Made by a program: the position numbers and the translations under genes. Under the pieces are notes generated by a model. That model was not told the origin of the DNA. It did no database searches and saw nothing but the letters and a program-made list of their open reading frames with translations. A stretch of 64,000 nucleotides of DNA from Tubulanus polymorphus (Eukaryota > Animalia > Nemertea), in NCBI RefSeq assembly GCF_964204645.1, contig NC_134025.1:15004001-15068000 (forward strand), given 5' to 3'. How positions within the stretch are numbered: position 1 is the stretch's first letter; each line of letters begins with the position of its first letter. Below, piece after piece: positions 5,831 through 64,000 of this stretch.

Positions 5831-5913
5831 TGCTTACCCCTACGAGAATTCCGTATTTGCTACTGATTCTAATAGCTAAATACGGAAGTACGGATGCTCC
5901 ATAAAAACTACGG

Positions 5914-41904: not shown

Positions 41905-41905
41905 C

Positions 41906-42283
41906 ATTGGTCGCTCCACTTCGCTACCGCTCCGCTCCGCGACCAATTGATTTATTTACAATACACAAATTCATATAATCAAATGTATTCAAATAATAAT
42001 AATTATTCTGTTATTCAACTGAAATACACACGGTTATGAAAATATATTATAGTTTTAAATTACTTTTAATATTTGTTTTTAATGAACTCGACCATTCAAC
42101 CTTTAACCTGAAAGCCCATTACCCCTATTACTCTTAAAATAATCATATACATGAATAACATTTAAATTGACAGATTATTCAATATAAAAGTATATATTTA
42201 CAACATTATTTCAATATTCATATTTGTGTGAGTTAGATTTTAAACATTAAAAGTGTTAGTAAAGTGTGATTGAAATAATGCAT
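41906..42283. repeat. Left TIR (outer ~185-bp fold-back arm missing)
   Basis: Reverse complement of 60945-61323 with few substitutions. Confidence 0.9.
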
Positions 42284-43184
42284 AGCTGTTTATACTAGAA
42301 CATGATTCTATTTGAGCCTATATACATTTCATGTAATGAACTATTGAATAAATCTATAAATTCACGGCTGTTACAGCTGTTACTATGACGCCGAGACATA
42401 TGAGTCATTATTGCAAACGTGTAGAGAACACTCTAGAACCGGAACCAGATGACGTGGCAAGAAATGAACAGGCGCTGTAACATTACGCTCAGGATATTCT
42501 ATCTCTCGAAACGAAATTAGGAGTTTATAGTTTACAATTCTAAATCTAAATGTAAGTACTGTTTTTTGTAGTTATTGGGGCTATTAAATATGAAACCTTT
42601 AGATATATTTAAGTGTATTTAGTATATCTTTTAGATGGCTAGAGTTGCCGCTAATATCTTTTAGATAAATAAAACGCCATACGCATCAAGAAGTGATAGA
42701 GAAACTCAAGATACTCTTTCTGACCAGGGAAGTGTGATGAGATGGAATACGGACGCTATTGTGCAGCTCTTGTCGAATGTGCGTTGTAATTGCCCTAAAG
42801 CCGATAACGGTTCGTCGCCGAGCGCTTTGTTACGTAACGCGCCGATAAGCGATAACCAGCGAGATCGGGAATCTCCGTAATAAATCAGTTGTTTCCGAAT
42901 ATCGGTTTTTCATCCCATAATAAACTTATATAAAAATTCCTCTGTAAACTGGTTAAACTCAACACCTGATTTCCCCTCATCAATTTTAGTCGATCAACTT
43001 GTATTCACAATTGTCTTAAATTTAAGTGCCCCCTAGTTTGTCTCTTAACTGCTTCTCTTTAATCTGTTTTAGTGTGTAACTGTTTCTACGTTAATTTTCC
43101 TTTAGTTAGTATCATCTCTGATTACTTGAATTAGTCTCTTTGTCTCTGGATTGTATATATCTTTCATAATTTCTGTAGTATTCA

Positions 43185-43230
43185 TTATTTCTGAAGATGA
43201 CTATTAGGACATGGACGAAACGTTGAATAA
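43185..43230 (+). ncRNA. Penelope-type minimal hammerhead ribozyme-like motif (degenerate)
   Basis: TTATTT-CTGAAGA-T-GACTAT..ATGGAC-GAAA-CG-TT-GAATAA: CUGANGA and GAAA cores, stem I TTATTT/GAATAA, imperfect stem II. Confidence 0.45.
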
Positions 43231-43839
43231 ACTACTAACATTTTTGGACTTTTTCGTTATCATTGTGGGATTCTCTCTACATCGCTTCAGACGGATATAG
43301 TGTTTTATCAATCGTGATATCGGTTCTTTCCGCTGTATTAAAATGGCAGCGGTTGTCAACGAAATTATAAATGATGACGATTTTGACGATCTATTCTTTG
43401 ATAGTGACGAATTGGTTCAGATCGATACGGAAATATTACGGGAATCCTCTGGATCAGGATCAACTAATTCGGCCGATTCTAGTGAGTGTTATTCCTTTTG
43501 AATCAATGAAATATCGGAATAGTTTCCACCTAATTGCAGGCACTTCTTTCCTTTTCTTATTCATATAGGTACTTCTCAGGCTCAGCTGACCAGAGACTGC
43601 GATCTGAACACGAGAAAACACACATACAGGTATTTTTTACATTTATTTTTATAATCAATACAATCCTTTTAGGTTATAAAATAATAAACGAATACAAAAA
43701 ATAATACATAAACATAATATAAAAAATCCAGATAAGTACATGTTAAAATAATAATCATTATTATTATTTTCGCAGGAACACTATATATTTGGAAAAGGCT
43801 ATGACTGAAGTGATTAACCATCGAGTATTTAAATTCAGT

Positions 43840-44172
43840 TCAAATGGAATGGCAGCAGTACATTATGGAAAATCGATCGATAAAATTTTGACTACAAATA
43901 AGTCGCCGTCCAGACTTGGAATTAACCAGTGGTTTACATGTCCATTGTTTTAATTTGATAGTAACAGGGACAGTTTTTTTAACGTTTTTGTTCTTACGCC
44001 ATTTTTGTAATTTGACACGACACATATTACAGATATATATCGGGTACTGTTCAGTATCATCATCAAAATCAATGTTGAACAACTCCTTCACATGGCTTTT
44101 GAAATTATTTTTATCGATAGGACGACGATCCGGAGGTTTCGCATTTTTTCCACACAATCGACAAAGATCCAT
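43840..44172 (-). pseudogene. RAG1/Chapaev N-terminal-like C4 zinc-binding domain fragment
   Basis: LCRLCG..FNIDFDDDTEQYPIYICNMCRVKL resembles CRxCG..FxIDxxxD...HP..FCxxC. Confidence 0.55.
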
Positions 44173-45618
44173 GACTAAAAACAAAAAAAGGTTAATTAAA
44201 TGAGATTGCTGATGCTATTTAGGCAACTTTGTTTATATGGGGGACAATAATTTGTAGGCCTAATGTAAGCGTTATTAAGTAACATTATTATGTAGTAAAT
44301 ACACATTTTAAAGATCATACTTCGTGTATATGTTTGTGTCGTAACATAGCAACATGACGTCAGAAACGAAAGCTGCGCGAGTCTGGGCCGAAATATTTGA
44401 CATCTTCAAGGCCCAAATAACGCTAAACCCGGAATCGGAACGAACTGGCAAAAACATATGTTTAACACATAAAAACAGACTTTAATCACAATATAAATAC
44501 TTAATGTTCCGATACCGGGTTTCGGAGATATAGAAGAATAAAAATACATACCTTTTTGGACAAATTTTACGAGAAATTGTTGAATTTCAACCGATTTTCG
44601 ATAGAAAAATATGTGCATACAGAGCCACTTCCACGTTGTTCAATGAACTGCAGTGCGCATGCGTAGTATCGATCGCAGAACATTTATCTGGCTAAAACTA
44701 TTGCGGGTTGTTCTGCGACCGAATCAAAGTTGATGTTGACTGGTGTTCAGCTGGTAACACACACTCGATAAGCGTAGCTTACTGCTGTTGCGGTAACCTT
44801 TGATGTACGGGCTGAATTGAATAGCCTACATCCGGCAATTAAAAGCGTCCGTATTCCATCTCATCACACTTCCCTGTTCTGACTGAGGAATCAACAGCAA
44901 TGGATATCGAACCAATAGAAATTAGCACAAGAAACACAAGAATCGCCAAAAGATCGACGAAGAAACTATATAAGAATTTCAAAAACATTAAGACTCCAAT
45001 GATTAGGTTTAACATTTATTGATGTAGTTAAATATTTACCAGCAATTGAAAAAATGTTTGTAATTATAAATTGTATTTATAGAAATCAAATGATGTATTG
45101 GAAGAAACGGCCGAACAACTTGTATAATGTATTGTGTAAATCTGATTGGTGAATTTTTATGTTCAGTCGTTTCTATTATGATTAGCGCATGCGCATTAAG
45201 CAAAAGCGCGCATAAATGGCCGCATGTAACGCATGTGACGAGGACATGAATGCGTTTGAATTTTCTATGTTCGGTCGTTTCTATTTTACAGAATTTATAG
45301 AATGAATATATAATTATGATTAACACATGTGCATTAAGCAAAACCGGCCATAAATGGCCGCATGTAACGCATGTGTTGTTTCTATTTTACAGAATTTATA
45401 GAATGAATATATATTTATGATTAGCGCATGCGCATTAAGCAAAAGCGCGCCTGTATGTCCGCATGTGACGCGGGTATTGTAACTAGTATGATTTAGATAT
45501 CAAGGAATCGAAACTGACTTATCAAAAGCAGCGAGGAATGAAAAAGGATGACGTTGGTCGAAGAAATGGAAGAGGATTCTAAAATATTAACCAATTTAGT
45601 AAAAAATACGTATAATAA

Positions 45619-46119
45619 ATGGAACCAGAACAACCACAAACTATCAATATTACAAATAACACTGGTGTTATAAATATATATTACAAGAAGTGTTCTAAAT
45701 GTGAATTAGATAAATTAGCTTTAACAGAATTTAGTAAGCGTAAGATTAGCAAAGATGGTTTTCAATATTGCTGTAAAACTTGCACTAAACTATATACCAA
45801 ACAATATCGAGAAGATAATATAGAACATTATAATTATTATATGGCAGAATATATGAGAGAAAGATATCAAACAGATACAGTCAAACAGTTACCAATATCT
45901 AAATTTAACATGAATGATGAATACAATAAAAAACTTATTTGGGGTTGGAAAAATTTAAGACCTTTAGAAAAGAAGGAAAACATAATTAAATCTAATAAAC
46001 TAGATTTACAGTTATATTTAGAACAGTTAACAAAGGCAAAGAAATTTATTGATCAATGGAACAATGATCCAAATAATGAACAATACGTTGAGGAATTTGA
46101 TATCAAGGATCCGAAATGA
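45619..46119 (+). CDS. Zinc-ribbon + HNH/endonuclease-VII-like protein, probably internally deleted
   Basis: KCSKC..EF..DGFQYCCKTC and LPISKF..WKNLRPLEKKENIIKSNK; the expected HIDH segment is absent. Confidence 0.55.
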   Translation: MEPEQPQTINITNNTGVINIYYKKCSKCELDKLALTEFSKRKISKDGFQYCCKTCTKLYTKQYREDNIEHYNYYMAEYMRERYQTDTVKQLPISKFNMNDEYNKKLIWGWKNLRPLEKKENIIKSNKLDLQLYLEQLTKAKKFIDQWNNDPNNEQYVEEFDIKDPK

Positions 46120-46417
46120 CTTATCTGGACAGTTATAATTACTGCTCCTAATAGATAAACAAAAGTAGTGAGATATCAAATAGAATTCAAATAAAATATA
46201 TTAAAAATTACATATCTTCAACAAGCTAGTATTAGTTATTGTTTTTTTAATACTTTCTTTTCAAAAAGAATACTTTATATCACAAATAAAAAATACTAAA
46301 AAAACAATAACTAATACAAATTCTTTACCTTTAACTAAGCTAGTATTAATCTAAAGAGATACTGGTATCATTTTATAATACTTATAATATTTTTCTTATT
46401 AAATTTCTCTAATATAA

Positions 46418-46989
46418 ATGTCAAAGAAATCGAGTAAGAATAGTATTGATATTGAAAAAACATTAGATGATTTGGGCATTAGTGATAATAAGGATATTCC
46501 GGCCAAAATTGAAAATAATATTCAAGTTAATTGTAATATAGATTATGAATACTATTTATATTGTAAACACCATCTTGAACTATTCAAGAATTAGATGCTA
46601 TGAAACCAGATAAAGTAATAAAATATTTTAAGATTTATGAAGAAGCTAGATTAGCTAGAATAAATGATTCTATTTCAGATGGTATTGTCAAATGTTATTC
46701 TAAGTTATGTAACCAGTTAATACCAATTGATGATGAAAATAAATTATATAGTGATTTGAAAAATGACTACTTAGTTATGACTGAATTACAAAAATGGGTT
46801 GGTTATGCTTCATTTCAATTAGGATCGGTTATGACATTAATTTCTACTGGTGTCATAACATTTTCGAACATTAAGCCTATGGAATATAAATCAGGTAAGA
46901 ACGAAACAGATGAACGAAACGCTGTACTACAACCAAACGTCGAAACAGAAAATGAATCAGAACAAAAATTAACTAAAATAAATGAGTGA
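46418..46989 (+). pseudogene. Unknown Polinton-like virus protein (frameshifted)
   Basis: TAAATG start at 46418, continuing into ORF 46600-46989. Confidence 0.55.
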
Positions 46990-47350
46990 TAGCGTTAAGA
47001 AAAAGGCTAGATCCGAGAAACAAATTAAATGGGCAAGAGAATTAGGTAAAAGATCTTCAGAATTAAAAAAAGCTAAGAAAAAGAAATTAACTGATATAAA
47101 TGAATCACAGACTTTATCTGATATTGATTCAAATAATAATCCATCTAATTCTTCTAATGCTGGAAGTAATTATAAATTATATATTACAATTGGATTAGTA
47201 ACAGTTATTATATTATCCGGTGTAATATATAAATCAAAATTCAAATCTGACGATAAAGATGATTCCAATGACAATAAACCTATCATACCAGAAAATAAGT
47301 CAAATGATAAAGTCATTGAAAATAAACCAAGATTATTATTAATGGATTAA
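46982..47350 (+). CDS. Basic N-terminus + single transmembrane protein
   Basis: RSEKQIKWARELGK; hydrophobic LYITIGLVTVIILSGVIY. Confidence 0.7.
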   Translation: MSDSVKKKARSEKQIKWARELGKRSSELKKAKKKKLTDINESQTLSDIDSNNNPSNSSNAGSNYKLYITIGLVTVIILSGVIYKSKFKSDDKDDSNDNKPIIPENKSNDKVIENKPRLLLMD

Positions 47351-47356
47351 AATAAG

Positions 47357-48475
47357 ATGAAAAAAGAACAATATTTAAGAGAGTTATATTATAACCCAGA
47401 AAGTGAAGTATCATATTCTAACGTTTCAGAATTATGGAATAAAATTAAATCTGATAATGAAAATGGTGATGGTGCCGTATGGCACCCACATTGTGGTATA
47501 AAATATAGTGAATTGAAATCATGGTTACAAAATCAACCAACATATCAAATCCACAAGAAAATGGATAAAACTTATTTAACAAGAAAAGTTATGGTTTCAT
47601 ATATCGATCAACAATGGCAAGCAGATTTAATTGACATGAAGAACTTAGAAGAATACAACAAAGGATATTTCTGGATACTGAATGTTATAGACATATTCAG
47701 TAGATACGCATGGTCAATTCCAATCAAAAATAAAACTGGTATAGAAGTAACAAATGCTTTTAAATCAATATTTAAAGAAGCTATTCCAGATAAGATACAA
47801 TTTGATGAAGGTAAGGAATTTTATAACAAACATTTCAAAAAACTATTATCTGATAACGATGTAGATTATTTTTCAACACACTCAGATAAAAAAGCATCTA
47901 TTATAGAAAGATTTAATAAAACATTGAAAACTAGAATGTGGAAATATTTTACTGCTAATGAAACGTATAAATATATCGATGTATTAGATGATTTAGTGAA
48001 AGGTTATAATAATTCTAAACATAGTTCTATAAATATGAAACCTATACAAGCTAGAAAAGAAGATAATTCGGAAATAGTTTGGAATAATTTATATGGAGCA
48101 TTTGTTACACATGATTTTGGAGAACCTAAATTTAAAATAGGACAACACGTAAGAATATCTAAATATAGAAAAACCTTTTATAAAGGTTATACCCCAAATT
48201 TTACAGAAGAAATATTCAAGATTAAAAAGATAATATTAACTAAACCATTTGTTTATAAATTAGAAGATCTAAAAGATGAAGAAATATTAGGTTATTTCTA
48301 TGAACAAGAATTATCACTTGTACCAAATCCAGATGAAATAGAATACAAAATAGAAAAAGTATTGAAAACAAAAACTCTTAAAGGAAAAAAGTATTCTTTG
48401 GTGAAATATAAAGGATATGATGATAAATTTAATGAATGGATTTTATCTAGTAAAATTAAAAGAATAAATGAATAA
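47357..48475 (+). CDS. Retroviral-like (rve) integrase with C-terminal chromodomain
   Basis: WQADLIDM, IDIFSRYAW, QFDEGKEF, KASIIERFNKTLK (D,D,E); YKIEKVLK..YSLVKYKGY..FNEWI chromo; intact 372 aa. Confidence 0.95.
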   Translation: MKKEQYLRELYYNPESEVSYSNVSELWNKIKSDNENGDGAVWHPHCGIKYSELKSWLQNQPTYQIHKKMDKTYLTRKVMVSYIDQQWQADLIDMKNLEEYNKGYFWILNVIDIFSRYAWSIPIKNKTGIEVTNAFKSIFKEAIPDKIQFDEGKEFYNKHFKKLLSDNDVDYFSTHSDKKASIIERFNKTLKTRMWKYFTANETYKYIDVLDDLVKGYNNSKHSSINMKPIQARKEDNSEIVWNNLYGAFVTHDFGEPKFKIGQHVRISKYRKTFYKGYTPNFTEEIFKIKKIILTKPFVYKLEDLKDEEILGYFYEQELSLVPNPDEIEYKIEKVLKTKTLKGKKYSLVKYKGYDDKFNEWILSSKIKRINE

Positions 48476-49071
48476 AGATTTATTTATATTTGAACCGCAT
48501 AATATGTTAGTTACTGGTGTAACCAATTGTGGTAAAACACATTTCATATTAGATTTGTTAGAAACTGTTTATAAGAATCATTTTGATAATATAATATTAT
48601 TTTGTCCTACTTATGAAATGAATAAAACATATAATAGAGATATAGTTAAGATAAAAAAGTTTATTATATTAGATCCTAAAAAAGTAAAAGAAAATTTAGA
48701 TAATTGTATTAAAATAGCAATTGATACTTATAAAGGATCAAATACATTATTCATTATAGATGATTGCGCAAATTTACATGATTCAAAAGTGAGAGAAAGT
48801 GAGTTATGTTATCTAGCTTTCTCTGGGAGACATTTTGGGATAACAACATGGGTTTTAAATCAAAAATATAATTCAATTGTTAAAGACTTTAGGGAGAATA
48901 TAAGATTTCTTTTATAACAAAGATAAAAAATCTATGCAACAATCATTGGAAGAAAATCAAATTATACCTACTGAATTACATGATGAATATATGAATAAAT
49001 TAAAGAATAATAAAGGTTCAAAATTATTACTGAGACTACAATTTCCCTATGAATATAAATTTATAAAATAA
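48468..49071 (+). pseudogene. A32/FtsK-like packaging ATPase (frameshift ~48910)
   Basis: Walker A GVTNCGKT, Walker B LFIIDD, SGRHFGI, NQKY. Confidence 0.9.
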
Positions 49072-49093
49072 CTATTTATATATCTATCTATCT

Positions 49094-49400
49094 AATACGT
49101 ATTAAATACGTATTAAATACATTAATACTTAAAACCCCCTTTTTTAAAATAAATATTATTCATACAATTTTCAACCAATTTATTTTTATTTTTTTCAACT
49201 AATATATGAATAAGAAAATAATAAAGGTTATTTATTATTACTGAGGTTTCAATATAAATTTAAAAAAGAAATATAATTTAAGGTATTTTCAAATAATACG
49301 TATTAGATACGTATTAGATACGTATTAGATACGTATTAAATACCTTAATACTTAAAACCCCCTTTTTTATTTACTATTATTTTATACAATTTTCAACCTT
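49094..49400. repeat. Two blocks of 11-bp iterons (AATACGTATT palindrome or GATACGTATT variant), between convergent gene cassettes
   Basis: 49094-49145 and 49296-49370, each followed by TAATACTTAAAACCCCCTTTTTT. Confidence 0.85.
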
Positions 49401-49402
49401 TA

Positions 49403-50275
49403 TTACTTTTTGAGTGTTAGATAATCACTTTCTGAATCACTTTCACTATCAGACCCTAACAATTTATTCAAATGCTCTACCGTATCTTCATAAATAATTG
49501 GTTTATTGATATACTTATTAGTCATCTCAACTATATCTTTATTTTCTGATTTAAGTTTGATAGAATCTTTATTATCAATGCGCTTTCCTGTATTTTCATT
49601 ATTATCTTTATTAGTGTTTGCTCCTAATATTTCATTTACAGTGTTTGATCCTAATATTTCATTAGCATTGGTTAGATCTAATTCATCTTTATTAGGTGTT
49701 GCTAATAATAAATCTTCATATATTTTTTCACCATTTACTTTTTGATTAGAAACAAACTTTGTAACATATCTAAATGGGTGTTCTATAAATTCTTTTAAAC
49801 CAACACGTTCTATAACATTATTTATATGTACCCTTGTATTCATATGTTTATTCCAATTTGATGGAGCGTTTGAAAATTCACTTTTACAATATCCACAATA
49901 ATTTCTATTTTCACTAACATTTAATATTATTTCATTATTAGATGTAGAAGGTATTACATTATTAGATGTAGAAGGTATTACATTATTAGATGTAGAAGGT
50001 ATTACATTATTAGATGTAGTAGGTATTACATTATTAGATGTAGTAGGTATTTCATTATTAGATGTAGAAGGTATTACATTATTATCAATTACATTACTTA
50101 AATTATCAACAACTTCACTTTTATTATTATTGATTTCTATTAGTTTAGTTTTATAAATTTTGAAAATAGGATCAAATATCAAAGCTATATTACAAGGTAT
50201 TACATAATATAAACCATCATTATTTTCATGTGTATCGATGTATGGAATATGTTTATATACTTTACCTCCTTCCAT
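49403..50275 (-). CDS. Unknown protein with 8-aa tandem repeats (NNVIPSTS x6) and a C2H2-type finger
   Basis: 24-bp repeats ~49930-50085; CGYCKSEF..WNKHMNTRVH. Confidence 0.7.
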   Translation of the reverse strand: MEGGKVYKHIPYIDTHENNDGLYYVIPCNIALIFDPIFKIYKTKLIEINNNKSEVVDNLSNVIDNNVIPSTSNNEIPTTSNNVIPTTSNNVIPSTSNNVIPSTSNNVIPSTSNNEIILNVSENRNYCGYCKSEFSNAPSNWNKHMNTRVHINNVIERVGLKEFIEHPFRYVTKFVSNQKVNGEKIYEDLLLATPNKDELDLTNANEILGSNTVNEILGANTNKDNNENTGKRIDNKDSIKLKSENKDIVEMTNKYINKPIIYEDTVEHLNKLLGSDSESDSESDYLTLKK

Positions 50276-50307
50276 TTATATAATAAATTTTTATTAAAGT
50301 TAAAATT

Positions 50308-51464
50308 TTAATACATAACACTATTTAATTGAGAATTTACAATATTTAATTGCGCGTCAGATATAATATAAATATGCATTTTAAAATTTTTGATTCCTTT
50401 ATTCTTTGTCATGAATAATTGTATTCCATCTTTAGTGTTCTGTAGTTTTTTTCCAGAACCATGTAATCTAAAATCTAACCATAATGCATATTTATTACCG
50501 GTATAATAATCAATTTGATTAATATTACAATTTTCAGATGATTTCACTTTTTCATTCATAAAATGTTTTCTAATTTCTGGCCATTGATCAATCATTCTCA
50601 TTCCTTGACAAAATATTTTATTTGCTATTCCTTCGATAGTTATTTCTACTTTTGTTATTTCAGGATTATAATAATTATCAACATTTATTGCGCCATTAGT
50701 ATATGTTGCAATGGTAAAAAATATTAATATACCTTTAATAGATCTTCTTGGGAAGTTATTATTCTCATTAATAATTTCATCATTTGCATTAATAGTTACA
50801 ATTTTAAATTTATCAATATAATCATATAATAATGAAAATCCTTGATTGTATTGAGTTTGAATTATACTTGAAATATTTTCATCAGTTACTGTGTCATATT
50901 CTAAACATATATTCGATAATTTATAACTCATATCGTTATTAACGCTAGATATTACAATTTCATTAACAGGAGCAAATGTTATCTCAAATATAACGTCTTC
51001 TTGAATTGCGTATTCATATAAAGGTGCATTGTTATTTATCAATTCAAAGTCTAATGGAATTGACAGCTGGATATAGCTGGAACTGATTGGATTCCTTGGA
51101 ATATCATATTATTTCTATTTTCTTTAGTTAACCATAAATCTTTATAATGCATAAATAAATTATAATCATCTAATGAGAAAACAGTTTCTGGACCAATCTT
51201 TATTGTTAATTTTTTAATCAAATATCTTCCAACATTATCAACAACATAATTATTATTATTACCGATTACTTTTATATCAGCTGATAAATAAATACTATTT
51301 GGAACATAAAAAGTATTTTGTGTTAATCGAGGAATTCTAACATATAAAGTTTCATCGGGATTAATATTAGAAGGGTTATGAGTAATTATATGATGTGATC
51401 TTTCTGCTTTAATAGCATTAGATATTCTATGATTCTTCGAAGGACTTATATAACTCCCACTCAT
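50308..51464 (-). pseudogene. Major capsid protein (double jelly-roll predicted), frameshift/deletion ~51050-51080
   Basis: HNPSNINPDETLYVRIPRL, IPLDFEL, YKLSNICLEYDTV, FPRRSIKGILIFF, YNPEITKVEITIEG; typical of Polinton-like MCPs; fold not verified. Confidence 0.75.
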
Positions 51465-51484
51465 TTATTTAACAAAAAAATTAA

Positions 51485-52945
51485 TTATTTATTTTTTATC
51501 ATATTCACTAACCCAAAAATAATAGCACTTACAACTGTAATTAAAAATAAAATAATATGTTCAGCAGCAAAGTTAATAATGTTTCCTGCAGATTTCAATA
51601 TAAAACCAACAATTGATGCAATAACTCCTGGTAAAGCTGCAGCAGATTTTTTAGATAGTTCCCATAGATATTTTGCTAATTTCTTTAAACCATCTTTAAC
51701 TTTATCTTGTATAGAATTATTATCATTCGGGGGTTTATCCGGTTTATTTGGAGTAGGAGTAGATTTTAAAGCATTCCATATTGCTAAACCAATTGTTGTA
51801 AATAACATAGTTACAGCTGTTAGAATTGAAAGAATTGGTATTCCTTCTAATTTAAATAATAATCTTATTCTATCTTTCAATGATATTTTAGAATCTGGTT
51901 TTATCAACAAATCTTTAAGAACATCTTTTAATCTTTTAAAATTATTACCAAATTCTTTTAATAATATATCTCTTTCACCTTTCAGTACTTCTAAATTATC
52001 TTTTAAATTATTAATTTCTTTTTCTAAACCTAATTCTTTTTGCCTATATTCTATTTCATCAATTGCTGGATGGTCTAAATCAGACTTTAATTTTTCTATT
52101 TCTTTATTTTTATCAGTTAATTCTTTTTCTAAATTGTTAATTTTAATATCTCTTATACTTTTTTCATTCGCAATTTTTTCAGCCGATTCTTGCATACCTT
52201 TAATTTCTCTACGTGTTTGTTCAGGATATAATTCTAATTCATCATCAGTTAAATCAAATAATCTATTTGGTAAAAGTTTTTCAGTTTGAACTTCGTTTGA
52301 TTTAGGTTTACTAGTTTTGGAAGTTTTATTCTGTTCAGAAGTTGTTTCTGTTTCTGGATTATCATCGATTATTTTAAATAAGTCATCAATTCTTTGACTA
52401 AATACTCTTATATTATCATCGCTTTCTTCTTGTGTGACATTGGTTATTTCATTACTAATACTTATTCTCTTAATTTTATCTAGACCTAATTTTCTCAAAG
52501 TTGATTCCGCTAATATTTTATTTAGTTTTGTTCTTTGATCAGTGATATCAATATAATAATCACCATCCAAACGATAATAATATTTACCTTTACAAAGTTT
52601 TAATTTTTGTACTAAAAGTCTGGCGCCTCTATCATTTATATTATATCCGGATTCTTTAAATACACGTTGAAAATCATACATAAAATCAATATTTTCAATA
52701 TCTTCCTTTGATAAACCTGGGTCTAAATTTTCAGTAGGTATTCTCGATCTAGTTCTTCTATCAAATTCATCTGTTTATGGGGCTTTAGAACCACTATCTG
52801 CTAAATTAGAATTATATGCTGATTCATTACCATCATCAATATTAGTTTCATTAAGATTAGCACCTGCATCATAATCATCATCAATATATCCTTCATTATT
52901 ATTTCCCATGCCTTCCATTTCATAATCTCCTCCACCTTCTGCCAT
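51485..52945 (-). pseudogene. Coiled-coil protein with C-terminal membrane segments (frameshifted near N-terminus)
   Basis: Start MAEGGGDYEM at 52945; long heptad region; GIPILSILTAVTMLFTTIGLAIW, LPGVIASIVGFIL, IILFLITVVSAIIFGLV. Confidence 0.7.
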
Positions 52946-52961
52946 TTACATAATAAAAAAA

Positions 52962-54286
52962 TTAAAATTTAAAATATAATATTCCTCCGATTACAATTCC
53001 TATACAAGTTAAAGCTAATTTAGTATTTTCATGGGATTTATTATCATCATTTAGTTTAATTATATCATGTTAAATATTATCAGTTTTTATATTTTCTGAT
53101 GTATTGTAATCTTTTATTTTAGAATCATTATTTAATTTAATATTATTAGTTTTAGTTTCAGTTGATTGAATGCATTTTTTATTTTTTTCACCTTCCATTA
53201 ATTTTGGAGCAGTAATAATCTTTTTATTTATATCATTCAATCCAAATGAATTATTTATTGTTGCAGTTTTAATTAGATTATTGTAACCAATCATGTTTCC
53301 CATCTTTAATACTAAATCATTAGAAATAATTAATAGATTAGGGCCTATACAATAATTTAATCTATTATGTGATTTATCTAAATAATTTTGATATCTTTCA
53401 ATGTTTCTGGAATAGATCTATTTTTATCATTATGAATGGAATCTTCAAATAATACTTTGAATTGTTTCTGCGCATCGAATGAAGTGTTATCATTTCCAAC
53501 TATTGGTGATCTTGTTTCAACTTGCGCGCCTAAAATACATATCAAATAAGTTCTAATAGATTGATTTATTCTTTGTATACCTGATTTTGTAAAACCTTCA
53601 CTATTTTCTACAATGAAATTAACCCAACCATTATTATTTTGTTGCTGTATATTATTATAATATTTTGGTAATTCATTCCAATTTAGTGTTCTTATATCTG
53701 AATTTGTCATTATTTTTCCAAATTCTTTAGTATACAATATTCCTAATCCACCCATTGTTCCAATTTTTGCTCTAAAATCTTTATTTGAATAAATATTTAA
53801 TTCATTACATATTTTATAAAACTTAGAAAAATTAATATTATTATTCAATTCTTTAAAATATTTTGAACCTGGTAAAGGACATTCTAATTCATCTAATATT
53901 AATTTTATTTGAAAATATGTATGAAATCTAAAAAGTGATAACATCAATGGTAAACTTGGTTTGTTTAAATGATCATTCCAACTAATTCCACATCCTGTTG
54001 TTGCACAATAAACAGCAAAATTTAATTGGTTCTGCCAATACTTCATATTAGATTTTAATAACCATTGTTTTGCCTCATTTAAATTTTTGAAATTAATTGT
54101 ATACACATGAAATATATTTTCCATCTTTACATGAAAATTATTACTTTCAGTAACATAAATATATAAATCAATTAATGAATTTAAAACTTCATTTCTATAT
54201 GTAATATCTTTATTAAAATCTATTGCTGGAATATTATATTTAATTGATTTATTATATTGGAAAGCTTTTGGAAAACTATCTGCCAT
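52962..54286 (-). pseudogene. Conserved unknown virus protein with C-terminal TM anchor (frameshifted)
   Basis: WQNQLNFAVYCATTGCGIS, FRFHTYFQ, ILGAQVETRSPI; C-terminal LALTCIGIVIGGILYF. Confidence 0.7.
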
Positions 54287-54303
54287 TTATATAATTAAAA
54301 AAA

Positions 54304-54738
54304 TTAATAATTAACTAATTCTTTTAATAATTTATCTTGTTCTTCAACTGTTATATGACCATTTAAACTTATTATATAATCTAGTGTATTCTTTAATTTA
54401 TTAATTTCTTTTATATTAGTTTTAATTTTTTCTTTATTACTTTTTATATTTAATTTTGAACTTATTCCGGTTAAAACACTTGAACTTAATCCTAACACGC
54501 CAATTGATATAGCTAAAGGTGTTAATGGACTGAATATTGCTAGAAATGTTATTACAGAACTAATTGTAACCGAACCACTTATAATCAAATAATATATAAT
54601 TTTAGATTTTAAATATTTTTTCTTTTTTATCTTTAAATCACTTTCAAATTCTAATATTTGTTTTTCTAAATATATTTTTAATTTAGTTTTATTTATATCA
54701 TGAGGAATAATACCAATATTATCAACTTTATCTTCCAT
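54304..54738 (-). CDS. Two-TM-helix protein flanked by coiled coils
   Basis: IIYYLIISGSVTISSVITFLAIF..LAISIGVLGLSSSVLTGI. Confidence 0.7.
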   Translation of the reverse strand: MEDKVDNIGIIPHDINKTKLKIYLEKQILEFESDLKIKKKKYLKSKIIYYLIISGSVTISSVITFLAIFSPLTPLAISIGVLGLSSSVLTGISSKLNIKSNKEKIKTNIKEINKLKNTLDYIISLNGHITVEEQDKLLKELVNY

Positions 54739-54758
54739 TTATTTAGCAAAACAAGTTA

Positions 54759-55181
54759 CTAATTAGTAAACTTATAAGCAACAAATATAACAATAACTGT
54801 TCCCCCTAAAATCCATATTATTTCATATTTCTGTTGTTCTTTACTCGGGGTATAATAATCTGATATTTTAGGTTTGTATAGATGTAATTTTTCTTTATTG
54901 GTTACCGCGTTATATAAACTCATTGCATCATCAACTGATTGAAAATCTCTGTGTGAAATCTTCTGATCATATAATTCTTTGTTAATATAATCCATATAGT
55001 TTTGTCTCTTTTCTCTATATTCTTCTGCAGCTTTATTGTATTTCTCTAATGCTAAGTTATGTCTTTTTTGTTCTGTTAATGATCCATTTTTATCAATATG
55101 TTTAAATAAATAACCACCACCAGTAAATGCAAAAGCGTTAACAATTGCCGATCCTATAATAGTTATAATTGCAGAAGCCAT
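54759..55181 (-). CDS. Protein with hydrophobic Gly/Ala N-terminus, coiled coil and C-terminal TM
   Basis: MASAIITIIGSAIVNAFAFTGGGYLF..EQKRHNLALEKY..IIWILGGTVIVIFVAYKF. Confidence 0.75.
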   Translation of the reverse strand: MASAIITIIGSAIVNAFAFTGGGYLFKHIDKNGSLTEQKRHNLALEKYNKAAEEYREKRQNYMDYINKELYDQKISHRDFQSVDDAMSLYNAVTNKEKLHLYKPKISDYYTPSKEQQKYEIIWILGGTVIVIFVAYKFTN

Positions 55182-55196
55182 TTATTTAGTAAAATA

Positions 55197-55407
55197 ATTA
55201 CGCATTTATATGGGAGGAATATGATTTTAGTTAAATTAGATAAAGTAACTGCTAATGTTAATTTTAAAATAACATTTATATCAAATCTATCAACATTAAC
55301 ACTTCCCATTTTGAATACTTTTTTAATACCATTGAATAACCAACAGTTCCAACTGATAGTAGTGCGCCATTATATAATCCAGTTATTATCCACTTATTAT
55401 CACTCAT
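55197..55407 (-). pseudogene. Small hydrophobic protein (frameshift in A-run ~55322), not in ORF track
   Basis: MSDNKWIITGLYNGALLSVGTVGYSMVL/KVFKMGSVNVDRFDINVILKLTLAVTLSNLTK; TAAATG start. Confidence 0.55.
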
Positions 55408-55749
55408 TTATTTATCAAAAAAATTACTATCATCAAAATATTTAGTTATCTTATTCATGATTAATTCAACATTTATTTCATTACTACTTTTATGATTATC
55501 ATATATTTTGGATAATATGTTTTTAATATCATCAATAATTCCATGTTCATTTAATTCATAATATTCTAAAGGTGATTTAATTAAATCAATTACTTTTTCT
55601 ATATTATAATTTTCTTTATTAATCATTGATGCATTGTTAAATGATTTACTTTTTATATCAGTAATTACATCATTTAGTTCAATTCTCATTTCTTTACCAT
55701 GTTTAAAATCAAACCCAAAACATATACTCGGTCCAACAGTTATATTCAT
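55408..55749 (-). CDS. Unknown virus protein
   Basis: 113-aa ORF with TAAATG start in the same cassette. Confidence 0.6.
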   Translation of the reverse strand: MNITVGPSICFGFDFKHGKEMRIELNDVITDIKSKSFNNASMINKENYNIEKVIDLIKSPLEYYELNEHGIIDDIKNILSKIYDNHKSSNEINVELIMNKITKYFDDSNFFDK

Positions 55750-55773
55750 TTATATAGTGAAAAAAATTACTCT

Positions 55774-56522
55774 CTACATCTTATAACTAATTCTTAAATT
55801 ACAGGAAAGTTATTCAAATCAATTAAATATCCATTGTGATTTCTAATCTAAAATTATTAAAACGAGGAATGCATGGTTTGAAATCACATTCTGTTAAATT
55901 ATAATTTATTTGCGTTCCAAATTCTTTAACATTCTTCAATTGTAAAATGTTTAGTAAACCAGAATTACAAGTTATATATTTAGTTGCTTCGAATGTTTTT
56001 GTTGGATCGATTAAATTGCAATAAATATAAAAATGCGTGTAAGGTATTAAGTTTGGTGTAACAGCATCAATATTTGTAAAAGATCTATCTGGAAGAATTC
56101 CTAACAGTTTAGCTATAGGTTTTTTTTACCATAAATTTATGTTTTTCACTATTAGACAACCTTATCTTAATTCTATCAGAACTATCACTTTTTAAAAATC
56201 TAATACTAAACCCAGAACTACTACCTAATTTGTGCCAGGCTTTTCTATTAATTTCTTGTGCTAATGTATCTACATTATATAACCCCGGTTTTAAATATAT
56301 ATAGACCCATGAATCTATGTGTCTATTAAAAACTAAAAAGGCTCTATGTTCAATAGTTTTATTCGATATATTATAAAAAGAATTACATAAACTTATATTA
56401 ACTAATTTTAAATCTACACAATTCTTGAATTCTCTATCTAATTGTACTAGTAAATTATGTGATTTATAATTAGTAAGTCTTCTAGAATCAACAAATATTC
56501 TGTATTCTTTTAATTCTACCAT
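55774..56522 (-). pseudogene. Minor capsid (penton)-like protein, frameshifted
   Basis: IFVDSR, LKLVNISLCNSFYNIS, LKPGLYNVDTLAQEIN, then AKLLG..YIYCNLID..NGYLIDLNNFPV after frameshift ~56120. Confidence 0.65.
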
Positions 56523-56573
56523 TTATTTTACATATTTTATTCGAAATCTATTTCATGGTGCCCTTTTTCATTC

Positions 56574-56891
56574 TTACCTTTGTATACGAAATAGAAATCT
56601 CCAGAACATAATTCTTCTAAAGTCTTCACTTGATAATCTATGAAATCTATCCGGTAAATATGTTCTGAATTTATATGTATTTCCTTTTAATCCTTCATAT
56701 TCTAAGTGTATAACTAATTTATCTCCATAGTTATTAGTAACTGTATCAATATTTGTAATTAGATATTTCTTATGAATTGTTAATTCTGTTAACTTTTTGA
56801 ATTTATAATCTACAGATTTTACATTTGTGATATCTTTAATTCTATCTAGAAATAATTTGTTGTTCTCACTGTGCGCTTGTTTACTCTCCAT
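56574..56891 (-). CDS. Small protein, possibly OB-fold ssDNA-binding
   Basis: FKKLTELTIHKKYLIT..TNNYGDKLVIHL..RTYLPDRF pattern; adjacent to pPolB; function is inference. Confidence 0.45.
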   Translation of the reverse strand: MESKQAHSENNKLFLDRIKDITNVKSVDYKFKKLTELTIHKKYLITNIDTVTNNYGDKLVIHLEYEGLKGNTYKFRTYLPDRFHRLSSEDFRRIMFWRFLFRIQR

Positions 56892-56920
56892 TTATAATAC
56901 ATATTTTTATTAAAATTTGA

Positions 56921-59900
56921 TTAACACGTTAGAATTCTTTTCATTATCTCGTTCTCTTTTGTTTCTTCTCTTTTAAATTTTAAGTATTCATCTAAATTGC
57001 AACCATATGCAACTGTATGAATTCCATCATCTAAAATATATCTTTTATCATCAAATGGGTTTAGACTTATCTTTTCAATTTCTTCAATAAACATTTCATG
57101 ATCTTCAGATCTTAAACATCTCATCTTATGTTTTCTAACTTCTTCATTGAATATACAATTGATGTAATCTTTGAAATGAATATTCTTTTCTACTACACTT
57201 TTGGTTATTCCTTTTAACTTTTTAGCTTCACGTTCTTTGGTTTTATATGAATACATTTTTAGATCTAATACCAATGAATTCAATCATTTCTTCACCGCCT
57301 AATTCATCTTTGAATTTACCGGGAACTTTTTTATTATCATTGCTAAACAATTCATGATTTTTAGGATAGTTACTGAAATCAAAATGATGTTTTAATGTTT
57401 TTAAATCATCAGTTATGTTATCAGTTTTTATCTTTAATATGTAACTGTCAGTATCAAAATATAATATTTCTATATGCTTTTCTCCAAACAATGGTTGTAA
57501 TACATTATAATAGAATTCATACATTAGTAATTTTGATAATTCTAAAACTGAAGCGCCAACATAGATTGGTTTATTAAATTTCATTGATGTTCTTCTCATC
57601 TTAACTGCGGCTAAATTTTCATCAAATATTCTGTTACCAATGAACTTAGGATATGTTTGTAAATGCCTTATCCTTTTGCCATTACTAACTAACTGAATAT
57701 CATTTCTATTTCTAATATTTTCACAAGTCTTACCATAGAATGCATTATTCATTAACTTGAAGAAATCTTTTTCGAAATCAGTTTTAGCTTCAGTTCTCTG
57801 TTTGGTGTTAAAATCTATATATTTTTCTAACCACTTAGATTGACTAAATGAAATATATCTATGTACTTTTTTTAAGAATAGTTCCTTGTTTTAGATAAAA
57901 CGTTAACATTCTGTAATGTACTACATAATTATATTTATCTTCTTGAGTTACCATTAACTTTTCTGTATGAATATGATTTTCGGGTTTAATTCTTTTTTGA
58001 TAATTTGATAATTCTTCATGTGTTACAGTTTTATGTTCGGGACAGTAAGCTAGATTTCTAGATTTAAATTTTTTATCTTCAGGATATTCTAAATCTACAA
58101 CAAAGAAGTAACCAGTATCTGAATCATCTGCAATATCTAGAATTCTTTTCTTCCAATCAAATTTATCATTATTTTCATTCTGTAAAACTTCAGTTAATTC
58201 AAATACTCCATAAGGTTGTGGTTCCATCATTGCCCAACCATACAAATTATTTGCATCTATATATAATATCTTATATCCAGGGTTATCATTTACATTGAAA
58301 TATCTATCACCTAATACACCTGAAACTCCTCCTCTTATAGATTTTTCAAATAATAATAATTGATCTATATTTGTTAACAAATCCATTTTCATATCTGTAA
58401 ATTTTAATCCACAATCCCATGTTAATCCTGGACTTGAATAACAATGACAAGGATCAAAATTAAATAATAATAATACATACATGATTTTCTATTTTGAAAT
58501 GATTCCAAATATTCAATGTTCTATTATATACTTCATCTTTAACATATTCATTTTTTAATTCATCGTAGAATTGTTCTTTTAATAATTCAGTTATATTAAA
58601 ATCATTATGTGATTTATAAAATGAATATGGAATTGCGCCTTTATATCTCATTATTTGAAAATCATCATTATTTGGGTAGTGTTGCTTCAATATTTTTAAT
58701 TCATCATCAACTAATGATTTTGATAAGTTATCTTATGAACTATTTAAAAATCTATATGAATCTATAAATCTTAGGCAACCAAATTGGAATGATATATAAT
58801 TCTCAGATGTTTTAGCTAACATTCTAAATTTATAAGTTGGTATTTTATCTTTTGATCTATTTGAATTTAATATTTCTATTTCATTATTGATTTCTTCTAT
58901 TTTTTTGCATAACTGTTTGATAAATAAATGTGCATCATATCCTGATAGATTATGAAATATAACTGGTACAAAGTTAATTTTCTTAGCTTGTAAGTTACAA
59001 TTCTCATGTGCGGCGCCTCTAAACTTTCCATTCAAATGATCATGGTCTCTTACTTTTTTATCTTTATAATTAAATATCTTTTCACAATAATAACATTTAT
59101 CTGCAAACTCAAATGCTTCTTTTTCTTCTTCTGTCATTATAATTTCTATATTTGTATTCAATAATTTACTAAATCTTATTTCATATTCAATTAATAAGTC
59201 ACAAAAATGATTGATAACATTTTCATTTCCGTAATCATAATATTCACTTTCAATTAGTTCTGGATAATCAGATTTAATATATAACCCGAAAGCTGCGGCT
59301 GATTGATGAATCTTTTTAAAAGTATTTGTTTTTGGTGATTCTTCTGAAAAATCATTTTCATTAGAATTTAATTCCTTTCTTTTATAATATATTTCTTTTC
59401 TATCTTGATCAGTTAATTCTTTATTTAATGATTCAAAATCTCCATATATAACAAATGGTACTTTATTTTTGTAATCATATTTTTTGAATTCTAATATTTT
59501 ATCTTTTTCATTTGGTAAAACTAATTTACAATAATCATGATTTTCACATAATTGTTTATGATTTAATAATGTACTTTCATTACTGAATCTATGTAAACAT
59601 TTTCTACAAAGATATATTTTATGGTGATCATTTTCTGATTTAAAAAATAAATCTATTTGTTTAATCCACATATAATGATTCTCATAATATAGTATATCTA
59701 TAACGTCGTTTGAATCATAATCTTTTGATAGGTATAAAGGTTCTAATGTATAATGTTTTATGTTGTTACCTTTTGTATTTGGTAATTTGATTAAATCAAA
59801 TACATTTATCTTTATATTATTATCTCTTTCTATTTTTGGGATGTTTTTAATTATAACAGGATACTTATCTATCTTATAATTATTTTCAAATTGTTTATAA

Positions 59901-60890
59901 TTTGTTAATCTAAAACTATGTTGTTTATAATCTTCAACCGGGTGTAAACAACTTATTATAGCCCATAGAAAACATTTATCATCTTCATTTTGCTCATTTA
60001 TTACAGCATTAGTTTTAAATGGTAGTTTAATATAACTCGATGCTTCAATATCTGGTTCTTTATAATATGATACATTATTTTCATCTATTGGTTTTGATTT
60101 AGTTAACTTATTATATTTTGTGTTATTAACATGTAAAGTCATAAATATTATTTCATCAAATATTAAACCAGATCCTTCAAAATATTTCTCTTCTATTTTA
60201 GTTTTTACTTCATTATAACATTTATCTAATTTATGATCTATATGTTGTTTTGAAATAATATGTTGTGAATGAGAATTTATATTATATATTGGTTTATCTT
60301 CAGATTTTATGAATTTAACTTTAGAAGATATACTTATTTTAGGATATTCAACATCAGTTATTATTTTTATTATTTCTTTCATATTTTCTAAATGTTTTTT
60401 ATTTCCTTCTAATGTTTTTCCTTTATGAAATTTAAACTCGATAGCTGCTGGGCCAATATCACTTTTAAATGCTTCGGTTATCTCTATATCTTTTTTATTA
60501 TCTAATGAATTAATATATTTTCTTACATCTTCCATGTATGGTCTTTTATTGTTTGATTTATTTTTTATGCTTTTAATTGTCTTCTGTTTCTTATCATTAT
60601 CTTTATCAAAATAATCTTCACCTAAAATATCATTATTCTTATTTCTAATATGACTTTGTGATTTTAAATGTTCATTATAATATCTTTTATCACTGAATGA
60701 TTGATTACATGTATCACATTTGTATGTTTCTTTTTCATTCTTTAATTCATCTAATTTAGATTCTAATATATCATCTTTATATTCTAGTTTCAATTTATTC
60801 TCTAAATGTGTTTTAGTTTTATTGTGTCTTTTTTTTGGATTTATCTATATTGATATTACATGTTGGGCAGTAGTACTTATTTGCTTCCAT
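56921..60890 (-). pseudogene. polB: Protein-primed family B DNA polymerase (group-2 Polinton type) with N-terminal zinc fingers, vOTU-like and endonuclease VII-like domains; several frameshifts
   Basis: YGDFES, FHNLSGYDAH, FIDSYRFL, YIDANNLYGWAM, KLMNNAFYGKT, YFDTDS, KKLKGI, DDKRY; DDKCFLWA..HYMWI; CYYC..VRDHDHLNGKFRGAAHENCN. Confidence 0.95.
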
Positions 60891-60944
60891 TTTAATACTA
60901 AATTTTTTATTAAAATTGATATTAGAAGTTCAATGATTTATATC

Positions 60945-61506
60945 ATGCATTATTTCGATCACACTTTACTAACACTTTTAATGTTTAAAAATCTAACTCA
61001 CACAAATATGAATATTGAAATAATGTTGTAAATATATAATTTTATATTGAATAATCTATCAATTTAAATGTTATTCATGTATATGATTATTTTAAGAGTA
61101 ATACGGGTAATGGGCTTTCAGGTTAAAGGTTGAATGGTCGAGTTCATTAAAAACAAATATTAAAAGTAATTTAAAACTATAATGTATTTTCATAACCGTG
61201 TGTATTTCAGTTGAATAATAGAATAATTATTATTATTAAAATATATTTGATTATATGAATTTTTGTATTGTAAATAAATCAATTGGTCGTGGAGCGGAGC
61301 GGTAGCGAAGTGGAGCGACCAATTGATTTGATACAATATGCTTTTAAAATTTAAAGTATTGATATCTTAGAATCTATATTTAGTTATAATATAAAATGCA
61401 CACGGTTATGAAAATGTATTATAGTTTTAAATTACTTTTAATGTTTTGTTTTTTAATGAGCTCGACCGTTCGACCTTTGGCTTGAAAGCCCATTACCCCT
61501 ATTACT
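60945..61506. repeat. Right TIR (~560 bp) whose outer ~410 nt (61096-61507) form a fold-back
   Basis: 61096-61205 pairs with ~61395-61507; apical stem AAATCAATTGGTCG/CGACCAATTGATTT around a purine-rich loop. Confidence 0.9.
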
Positions 61507-61962
61507 CACATTCCGTTGTCGGCTCGGGGTCAGGCTTATCTTGTGTTAGCCTCCCGTCAGTCAGTTATGGACTCCAGTTCCAAAGCTCGTCTACCGGATA
61601 TTGTGTCCAATGCTTTGCTGAGAGCTCCATTGGGGACGTCTTCACGTCTCTTCCCCGGTTGGTGCGCTCCTGTTTCCGTCGAGCTGAGGAAGATTCGGGA
61701 GGTCCAGACCAAGTCCGCCGTCCGAACTCCGTGGAAAAAGCGTTCTGGTCCGACGCCGGCGGCGCAAGGTTCGACACGGACGCAAACAGGACCAACTCAA
61801 ACTTCAGCGCTTTCTCAGGTGGCAACGGATGCCGGTTGGAGAACTAGCGCGCAACTTCAACAATCATGTCAAACCTTGACCAGTCGTAACAGTTCCGGTT
61901 CGTATCGAGGCAAGGGGAAGGCTCCAAAAAGGGGCTCTTCCTTTTGGAAAAACTCGAAATGA
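61507..61962 (+). pseudogene. DIRS gag C-terminus
   Basis: LLRAPLGTSSRLF motif and basic Gly/Arg-rich tail typical of DIRS ORF1. Confidence 0.65.
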
Positions 61963-61975
61963 ATTCTCGGGACCA

Positions 61976-63750
61976 GTGGGAGGTTGTCTGCAGCAGGCAG
62001 CAACCCACTGGTCCGACCTTTTCGAAGACGGTTGGCCCTCCCGGGACGTCTCTTGTGGCTACCGTCTCCGTTTCCCAAGGCGACCGCGCCTGACGAGGTC
62101 ACCTCCCGACATGCGGCCAAAACCAGGTCAGGAGACTCTAATCTCTCCGGCTTTCAAGGAATTGGCCGAGAAGGGAGTGATAGAACCAGTTTGCAACGAA
62201 ACTTCTCCCGGCTGGTTTTCTCGAATATTCATGGTACCAAAGGCCACAGGGGGTCAACGGACGGTGATAGATCTGTCATCCCTCAATCGGCACCTAGACA
62301 TTCCAAGGTTCCGGATGAACAAACCCAAGGACGTGATTCAAGGGCTCCGTCCGGGTCAATGGGCGGCTTCGTTGGACCTGAAAGATGCTTACTTTCAGGT
62401 TCCAATTCACCCAGATTCCAGCGATTTCTCAGGATAAAGTGGAAAGGCCGCCAGTTCCAATTCAGGTCTCTTCCATTTGGCCTCAGTACGGCCTTGTGGG
62501 TTTTCACCAAGTTGGCCAAGTCAGTTCAGAAGGTGCTTCAGTCAAGGGGTGTTCGACTGTTCGTTTACCTCGACGACTGGTTTATAGTCGCGAACTCCGC
62601 TCAAGAATGTCGGGATGCAATGACCTCATTCTTGGACTTAGTCCATCAGCTAGGGTTCCGCGTAAACAGGGAAAAAATCTCAGTTGACGCCGGCCCAACA
62701 GTTCACTTATCTCGGCATGGACTTCGATCTCCGAATCGGCAAAGTCTTTCCTCAATGGCTCGAGTAGCCAAACTTCAAGAAGCTGTAGCGGGAGTGTCCA
62801 CAACCCCAAGAACAGCTCGTTACTGGTCACGGCTTCTAGGTTCCATCAGCTCCATGGGTCTGGTGGTGCCCTTTGGCCGCCTCAGAAGCAGGCGCTTGCA
62901 ACAATATTGGAAGGTCTTCTGGTCTCGGTCGAAGGGCAACTGGGAGACCTTGATTCCCGTACCTCCAACCGATCTAAGTTCGGATCTTCATCGGTGGGCG
63001 GCAACTACGAATCTTCGGCGCGGGGTGTCACTAGCCCCGTTAGAGGCTCCAGTTCGTGTATTCACGGATGCCAGTCACCAAGGATGGGGGCACATCTGGA
63101 GAACCGAGTCAAAGCCGGGAGATAGTCTCGCTACGAGGCCACCAACCACATAAATTTCCTGGAAATGGTGGCCGTGTGGAAGGCCCTGAAGTTCTTTCAC
63201 AGGAGAGTGGAGGGCCACCACGTTTGGTTAGCCACAGACAATTCAACAGTGAGGGCTTACCTTCAGAACCAAGGGGCACACACTCAGAAATCCTCACGGA
63301 TCTGTCGGCCAAAATTCTTCTTTGGTGCCAGACAAAGGGCGTGTCCCTGACTGTGGCACGTTTAGCAGGGAAAAGGAACGATGATGGCCGATGCTCTTTC
63401 TCGTCGAGGTCAGGCTATTGCGACAGAATTGGTTCTCCACCAAGAAGTAGCCGATCGGGTTCGAGGCATGTTTGGCAATCCGCTGCTGGTTCTGTTTGCC
63501 ACCCGGTTCAATCGGAGGTGTCCTCTGTTTGTTTCCCCGTTTCCAGACGCAGAAGCGTGGGGGGTCGATGCCTTCTCTCTGGACTCGTCGGGGATGCATG
63601 CATGTTCCCGCCCACACCAGTCCTGCCGCGCTTGCTGGATCAGATAGAGAGATCAGTCAATTGCAACATAGTTCTGGTAGCACTATGTTGTCCGGCTCAG
63701 AAATGGTTCCTACCACTTCTCAACCTACTGTGCGACAACCCCCAGGATTC
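61976..63750 (+). pseudogene. DIRS pol: reverse transcriptase, RNase H and adenine-methyltransferase-like domain, frameshifted
   Basis: VGGCL..W, FSRIFMVPKATGGQRTVIDLSSLN, SLDLKDAYFQVPIHP, LPFGLSTA, YLDDW, VFTDAS..GWG, HINFLEM, TDNSTV, ADALSR, LFATRFN..DAF. Confidence 0.92.
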
Positions 63751-63839
63751 TTTCGAATTTCCCATCGCTTCTGTCTCAGGGGAACTTTCGGCATCATCCA
63801 AACAGCCAGTGGTTAAATCTGCTCGCCTGGCCAGTGTCC

Positions 63840-64000
63840 AGTGATCCTTGTCAGCTTCAGGCTTTTCAGAAAGACTTTATTTTTGCTGTTCTTGGCTTGC
63901 TCGGCCCGTCGCTCTTGAGATTCATGCGCTTTCAGTCCGACAAGTTCTGTTGTCTTCGGGCCAGCGAAGGAATTTGTTTCGCTGCGGCATGCTTTGGAGT
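63840..64000 (+). pseudogene. Heavily deleted tyrosine recombinase remnant
   Basis: RPVALEIHALSVRQVL resembles the YR RAHxxRA..S region; position after the MT domain as in DIRS. Confidence 0.35.

Follow-up and report, generated by a model that had tools for sequence, protein, structure and literature searches.

To our knowledge, the replication of Polintons and their exit from the chromosome have been modelled and not demonstrated. The animal members of the group (Polintons, Mavericks or adintoviruses) are described as having a pPolB with terminal-protein and vOTU domains, an rve integrase, an A32 ATPase and terminal inverted repeats (TIRs) of several hundred bp with an AGT-type end (PMC8097293; 10.1101/2023.08.22.554363; PMC11071308). 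These traits recur in the element that we analysed in a window of 64,000 nucleotides from the nemertean Tubulanus polymorphus (NC_134025.1, positions 15,004,001 to 15,068,000), but its end reads AGTAAT instead of (AGT)2 and the outer 410 nt of its TIR folds back on itself. The terms "hairpin" and "palindrom" are absent from the main text of PMC8097293 and of 10.1101/2023.08.22.554363. A full-text search of the open literature, judged on titles and abstract openings, returned no description of extended fold-backs at the termini of animal Polintons that encode pPolB.

Several other systems have ends that resemble this one in part. Hairpin priming has been proposed for the endogenous virophages and PLVs of Halocafeteria, mostly elements without pPolB, which carry terminal palindromes (bioRxiv 10.64898/2026.07.28.741278, 2026). 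As in our element, the palindrome in that preprint sits at the tip of the TIR, by the insertion site. But it measures 52 nt in the figured subtype and belongs to a protist, whereas the fold-backs described here span 257-410 nt, are imperfect, covary and show a G·T polarity, and pPolB adjoins the end with its protein-priming parts kept. In parvoviruses, too, the 3' end folds back over a long and imperfect stretch and can provide a paired 3'-OH (PMC8242256), but our element encodes its own pPolB and integrase, no HUH Rep was found in it with Pfam or PHROGs, and its flip and flop forms are not equimolar. The telomeres of Streptomyces, which terminate protein-primed linear replicons, have a 3' strand that folds with G:A-closed triloops and undergo end patching or repair (PMC4513846; PMC5449611). 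They comprise many short Tap-bound palindromes on a replicon with an internal replication origin, in contrast to the single long stem found here. Finally, restart on displaced strands in pPolB systems has been attributed to panhandles in adenovirus and PRD1 (PMC11886824) and in the ITRs of bidnaviruses, whose ends are described as devoid of palindromes (PMC4938981). Panhandles pair two distant TIRs, whereas one end can pair within itself here, and direct evidence for panhandle restart in adenovirus and PRD1 is said to be lacking (PMC11886824).

The element is an endogenous Polinton. It is AT-rich, extends from about 41905 to 61506 (GC about 0.21-0.26 across 46-61 kb) and is inserted in a host retroelement (61507..64000, + strand; RT domain, Pfam RVT_1 E 6.5e-10) that we take to be DIRS-like; GC climbs from about 0.22 to 0.53 on passing into the latter. 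The + strand encodes an rve integrase with a chromodomain (47357..48475; Pfam rve E 2.5e-9) and a partial frame of an A32-type packaging ATPase (48468..48917; Pfam Pox_A32 E 9.5e-12). The - strand encodes what is probably the major capsid protein, spread over two frames (50308..51464; Pfam Capsid_N E 0.0014, under the curated cut-off) and pPolB (56921..60844), which adjoins the right end and is frameshifted in this copy, its five frames including zinc fingers, a terminal-protein-like domain, vOTU, an exonuclease with an endonuclease-VII insertion, and the palm. Pfam gave no match to a maturation protease among 27 ORF pieces. All genes of the right half read inward, on the strand opposite to the one whose free 3' end lies at the right terminus (hereafter the 3'-end strand). 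Near the left end, an ORF (45619..46119, + strand) matches endonuclease VII and HNH profiles (PHROGs, E 4.4e-7 and 5.8e-4, respectively) through its zinc-ribbon part alone, and its catalytic motif looks incomplete by eye. Judging from its sequence, it is a candidate nickase or passenger homing endonuclease.

Downstream of pPolB lies a gene for a small protein (56574..56891, - strand) with a predicted OB-like fold, modelled on its homologue in the related locus L010 (best Z 5.9, which is weak). The protein has 64 homologues at E up to 0.001; those of L007 (338-697) and L010 (571-933) are encoded upstream of pPolB, between it and the fold-back. Pfam and PDB sequence searches gave no name for this protein, and its Atlas lead is the phi29 SSB (score 0.82, on 44% of cluster members). 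The model makes it a candidate single-strand DNA-binding protein. The left part of the Polinton also contains a 2.2-kb insert (42714-44887), probably a DNA transposon nested in it, which has inverted ends of 47 bp and carries a zf-AD ORF (43840-44214). A 24-bp tandem repeat (49904-50119) lies within a viral ORF of 290 aa (49403-50275). Elsewhere in the window there are another element of ~7.7 kb, with inverted ends of ~480 bp that are 95-97% complementary (22116-22598 / 29374-29850), and a dispersed repeat family of 150-bp units (2183-9087 and 30027-30508) with a conserved CCACCAGGGGGCG-type core.

The right TIR spans 562 bp (60945..61506), its outer 410 nt being the fold-back, and is identical to the left TIR remnant (41905..42283) at 367 of 380 columns. 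The remnant keeps the inner arm (42022-42132) and the apical stem; its outer ~180 nt are gone, together with neighbouring retroelement DNA. Since the left flank does not correspond to the sequence preceding 61510 in uninterrupted copies of the retroelement, the left junction appears to be a deletion or an assembly collapse, and its loss makes the 6-bp target-site duplication unreadable. At 41905 the loss stops at the foot of the apical stem, which is what a break induced by the hairpin, or else an assembly collapse, would produce. The long TIRs have 5'-AG...CT-3' ends, the left tip being absent in the window copy and the AGTAAT end being set by sequencing reads.

The first-pass annotation of this DNA had placed a terminal fold-back at 61096..61507. 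The fold-back is real and its exact limits are 61097-61506, the element ending in ...TATTACT at 61506; the G61096/C61507 pair falls outside both the mirror and the end defined by reads. The outer stem (61097-61207 / 61394-61506) comprises, on the + strand, 99 Watson-Crick pairs, 10 G·T and no A·C, one clear C·C mismatch, and another mismatch that depends on the alignment, beside a 2-nt bulge. What had earlier been counted as two 1-nt bulges comes out as one of 2 nt. The outer arm (61394..61506, + strand) is the physical right end of the element, where the 3'-end strand terminates, and its last base pairs with the first base of the fold-back in silico, as had been proposed. Read inward (- strand), this arm starts with AGTAAT and contains two GGTCGA motifs. 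The inner arm (61097..61207, + strand) is a mirror copy of the terminus that stops exactly at the terminal AGT, and one of its two copies of the motif is GGTTGA. Between the arms, an AT-rich internal loop (61208..61393, + strand) bears an apical hairpin with a 16-bp stem (61275-61290 / 61315-61330) and about 8 bp below it, which together account for the ~24-bp stem noticed initially. In its 24-nt purine-rich loop, the 3'-end strand alone has cGNAg triloop motifs, and GNA triloops are given as stable DNA loops in PMC10085684. The fold-back has a folding z of -20 relative to 100 shuffles, on both strands. We tentatively favour the reading, which we hold at somewhat less than an even chance, that this 410-nt mirror repeat works as a fold-back on the free 3' end of a replication intermediate made of single-stranded DNA, from which the second strand would be started locally, in addition to protein priming.

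We gathered 89 loci with a pPolB alignment and found the terminus-type motif in three (L007, L010 and L011) and a complete mirror in one (L010), numbers that are not frequencies because most of the 89 contigs stop short of an end. Among the three close relatives with a visible end, two have the fold-back. In L010, whose pPolB is 71% identical over the window's stretch, it extends over 257 nt from AGTAAT to the mirror (z -13.7) and gives no blastn match with the hairpin of the window; 16 of the first 28 outer-arm bases are common to both, and 11 of the 12 differing columns pair in both. L007 (pPolB 72%) begins inside the hairpin, with the inner mirror present. In L011 (pPolB 56%), the terminus is accompanied by the tandem motif but by no fold-back (z -1.39). 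The wider clade can thus do without the hairpin, which weighs against self-priming. An A-rich repeat tract occupies positions 157-400 of L011, where the fold-back would be. In the window, L010 and L007, the mirror stops at the terminal AGT, as expected if it was copied from the free end. The tandem motif has CG in all six outer copies, and TG in four of the six inner copies, never CA (p = 0.06). By motif match alone, the apex bears cGNAg on the 3'-end strand of the window copy and of L010 but lacks it in L007. Among the other loci, L088 starts with AGTAAT, a putative end, and has no mirror, and L021, an apparently complete 16.8-kb pPolB element on a metagenome contig, has a perfect 108-bp TIR (16-123 / 16672-16779) and no long fold-back in self-comparison. 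Searches of IMG/VR with a single protein or the apex pattern gave nothing useful.

The outer arm could have been a one-off rearrangement or belonged to an adjacent truncated element. L010 and the reads, which amount to ~12% of raw run X6 and come from organism B (perhaps another species than the window's host, containing 32-46% of sampled words), rule this out. Runs X1 and X2 had small shares, and the contig placed from X1 fell outside the hairpin. Depth is unbroken to 61506, and some 2,000 reads reach the end of the element there and continue into unrelated flanks (1934 and 1987 reads, agreement 0.34), so that the outer arm is a family feature and the terminus of a Polinton. The outer 50 bp have about twice the depth of the inner arm, which suggests that in up to half of the related ends the mirror may be missing or diverged. 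Shorter forms, from other subfamilies, retain 38-47 terminal bp of each arm around a different centre, and a 32-nt insert (4 reads) is itself a hairpin. Minor read classes skip 45-92 nt of the apical hairpin (61257-61350) or are without 126-141 nt of the inner TIR (60930-61062), showing ongoing length variation of the end.

The reads also revealed that the two arms covary, a property that the first-pass annotation had put forward as a check on the structure. Four mirrored double changes keep the pairing, at 61107/61496 (583/1909 and 850/3246 reads), 61112/61491 (693/1919 and 1277/3367), 61122/61481 (460/1927 and 1705/3823) and 61172/61429 (319/1228 and 511/1660), and the column comparison with L010 points in the same direction. 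Mirrored A and T insertions affect the last pair in 181 and 112 reads. We considered the best 40 of 100 variable places, of which 22 are in the outer stem: 17 of these variants keep or improve pairing, and nine replace a wobble or a mismatch by Watson-Crick pairing; in five others a pair is lost, and the best 40 of 100 contain no change of its partner. The unique inner flank has the same depth (~2060) as the arm (~2030), which makes cross-mapping an unlikely source of the inner-arm variants. At the apex, one variant makes GCGAAGC (514/1481 reads), an unusually stable DNA hairpin according to the title of a reference listed in PMC10085684. Yet, covariation could also arise from arm-to-arm conversion without function, and this counts against self-priming.

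The transition mismatches are of G·T type on the 3'-end strand both in the window and in L010, as initially described for the former. In ten other inverted-repeat pairs of the window the counts are 27 for G·T, 26 for A·C and 62 for transversions, against which the stem stands out (10:0 vs 27:26, Fisher p = 0.004). The C·C and two of the ten G·T pairs are peculiar to the window copy, with 95-99% of reads differing there, which leaves eight G·T at the level of the family (8:0, p = 0.008). Five of these eight are Watson-Crick in 24-43% of reads, and those at 61131, 61135 and 61143 are absent from the best 40 of 100 variable places. The outer stem of L010 has on its 3'-end strand three G·T, no A·C, five transversions and six gap columns, and self-BLAST of its whole hairpin gives 10 vs 1 in the same direction as in the window. 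The polarity had been taken to mean that only the 3'-end strand folds well, and this was not borne out: with DNA parameters both strands fold well (-112.9 vs -102.8 kcal/mol), and those of L010 are nearly equal (-69.5 vs -69.4 kcal/mol). The strand asymmetry as DNA is thus modest, and gaps this small, 10 kcal/mol for the window and 0.1 for L010, also count against self-priming.

Such a small asymmetry would be natural if the structure were a functionless by-product of template switching at the free end, arm-to-arm conversion and strand-biased deamination, the last of which would produce the G·T excess. The variable lengths of the fold-backs (about 120, 257 and 410 nt), the missing mirror of L011 and the exact boundary at the terminus, which also fits run-off copying, are all compatible with this explanation. 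Moreover, three of the four polarisable private transitions of the right TIR are G·T-making, one of those being outside the hairpin, and a mutational share in the G·T excess is not excluded. Nevertheless, we find a functionless origin unlikely. The structure persists while its sequence turns over, as the comparison with L010 illustrates, even though long palindromes are prone to deletion and both the left end of the window copy and several read classes have lost parts of theirs. The inner motif decays to TG and never to CA, with the outer copies intact. Finally, strand displacement and inward transcription would be expected to expose the 5'-end strand, predicting the reverse polarity. ADAR editing was rejected as a source of the G·T pairs, by reasoning only, as it has no route back to DNA.

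The gap between strands is larger with RNA parameters (-198.3 vs -154.5 kcal/mol in the window and -117 vs -103 in L010), and this would suit a role in RNA, either through an outward transcript whose fold includes G·U pairs or through inward transcripts whose duplex A·C mismatches would destabilise. We consider such a role very improbable: the genes of the right half are all on the other strand, an Rfam search with E up to 1 gave no match, the stem finishes precisely at the terminus of the DNA, and the apex motifs belong to the DNA-loop type.

Rolling-hairpin replication of the classical parvovirus type, with hairpin transfer, might have replaced protein priming in this lineage. The paired 3' terminus and the presence of the HNH/endonuclease-VII-like ORF are compatible with this scheme, as are 105 reads that join opposite strands at mirror positions. 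Yet, these reads are ~8% of the local depth (about 1250-1400) and may be inverted copies or library chimeras. The flip and flop isomers for which the first-pass annotation had suggested looking are therefore far from 50:50 and one orientation dominates, which is also the case of some parvovirus ends, found in one orientation only (PMC8242256). No HUH Rep was identified by Pfam (27 ORF pieces) or PHROGs (14). The protein-priming apparatus, for its part, is conserved. An AlphaFold2 model of the N-terminal part of the polymerase (pLDDT 86) shows an alpha/beta domain with Y-family polymerases as best PDB matches (E 0.006 or weaker) and adintovirus and MELD-virus pPolBs as top viral structural matches; a likeness of the terminal protein to the LF/PAD of Y-family polymerases is described in PMC11071308. 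In an alignment that included 52 of 61 homologues, the predicted linking Ser of the terminal protein, between the second helix and the last strand, is present in 52 of 53 sequences, and it is followed by the vOTU Cys and His in 53 of 53. This pattern matches the terminal-protein signature given in section 7 of PMC11071308, and protein priming thus appears to be retained. Its outright replacement by a rolling hairpin is, on these grounds, highly unlikely. Endonuclease VII had further been proposed to resolve the hairpin, but its motif occurs in 51 of 61 homologues and in the hairpin-less L011, and we discarded it as a hairpin-specific resolvase.

How could self-priming and protein priming coexist? 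In the reading that we favour, terminal-protein-primed strand displacement would free a full-length single strand, whose 3' end would snap onto the inner mirror. A paired 3'-OH with template running on beyond it is a plausible primer, and would be extended by pPolB. The closed end would then be nicked at the old terminus, for which the integrase, the endonuclease-VII insertion and the HNH-like ORF are candidates, and the freed 3' arm would be copied by terminal-protein priming, restoring the same orientation. We infer the nick and the protein-primed patch because with ordinary hairpin transfer, or with resolution of dimers, the end would come out flipped. The G·T pairs would be changes tolerated in the inner arm, by which copies of the motif are lost and the stem of the 3'-end strand is not weakened. 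In phi29, a recessed 3' end primes well, and protein-primed origins are weaker when they have a 5' overhang (PMC4150772, section 13). This is the geometry of the fold-back, and it favours self-priming of the second strand.

The fold-back might instead serve protein priming or end protection only, as a local duplex origin or as a cap or repair device of the 3' end, with no extension of the 3'-OH into the genome. The retention of the terminal-protein parts and the dominance of a single orientation are what such a role would produce, and the folded duplex contains both copies of the motif, flush with the terminus. There are precedents for each version: duplex origins of phi29 are stronger than single-stranded ones (PMC4150772), the folded 3' overhangs of Streptomyces recruit protein priming through G:A-closed loops (PMC4513846), and truncated Streptomyces ends are repaired on a fold-back (PMC5449611). 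But the fold-back leaves a long 5' overhang, of the kind that lowers the activity of phi29 origins, and a paired 3'-OH would be extended unless blocked. A role confined to priming by protein or to protection therefore seems to us improbable.

Overall, the fold-back is a real and structurally conserved feature, family-wide in the reads available. Its self-priming may be part of a broader hybrid cycle in a clade of animal Polintons, where the first strand would be primed by protein and the second by the hairpin, followed by the nick and the terminal-protein patch. The fold-back, specific to one strand, would in that case also present single-stranded DNA to the integrase with a duplex end, and in this way the integrated virus would leave the chromosome by copying. 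We regard this full scheme as doubtful, if somewhat less so than the rival explanations. This covarying and strand-polarised structure, placed exactly at the end of a Polinton that encodes pPolB, constitutes a small, synthesizable substrate for comparing self-priming directly with protein priming, and L011 offers a natural contrast as a relative with no hairpin. Were the hybrid model true, protein-primed and hairpin-primed replication would be linked within one virus lineage.
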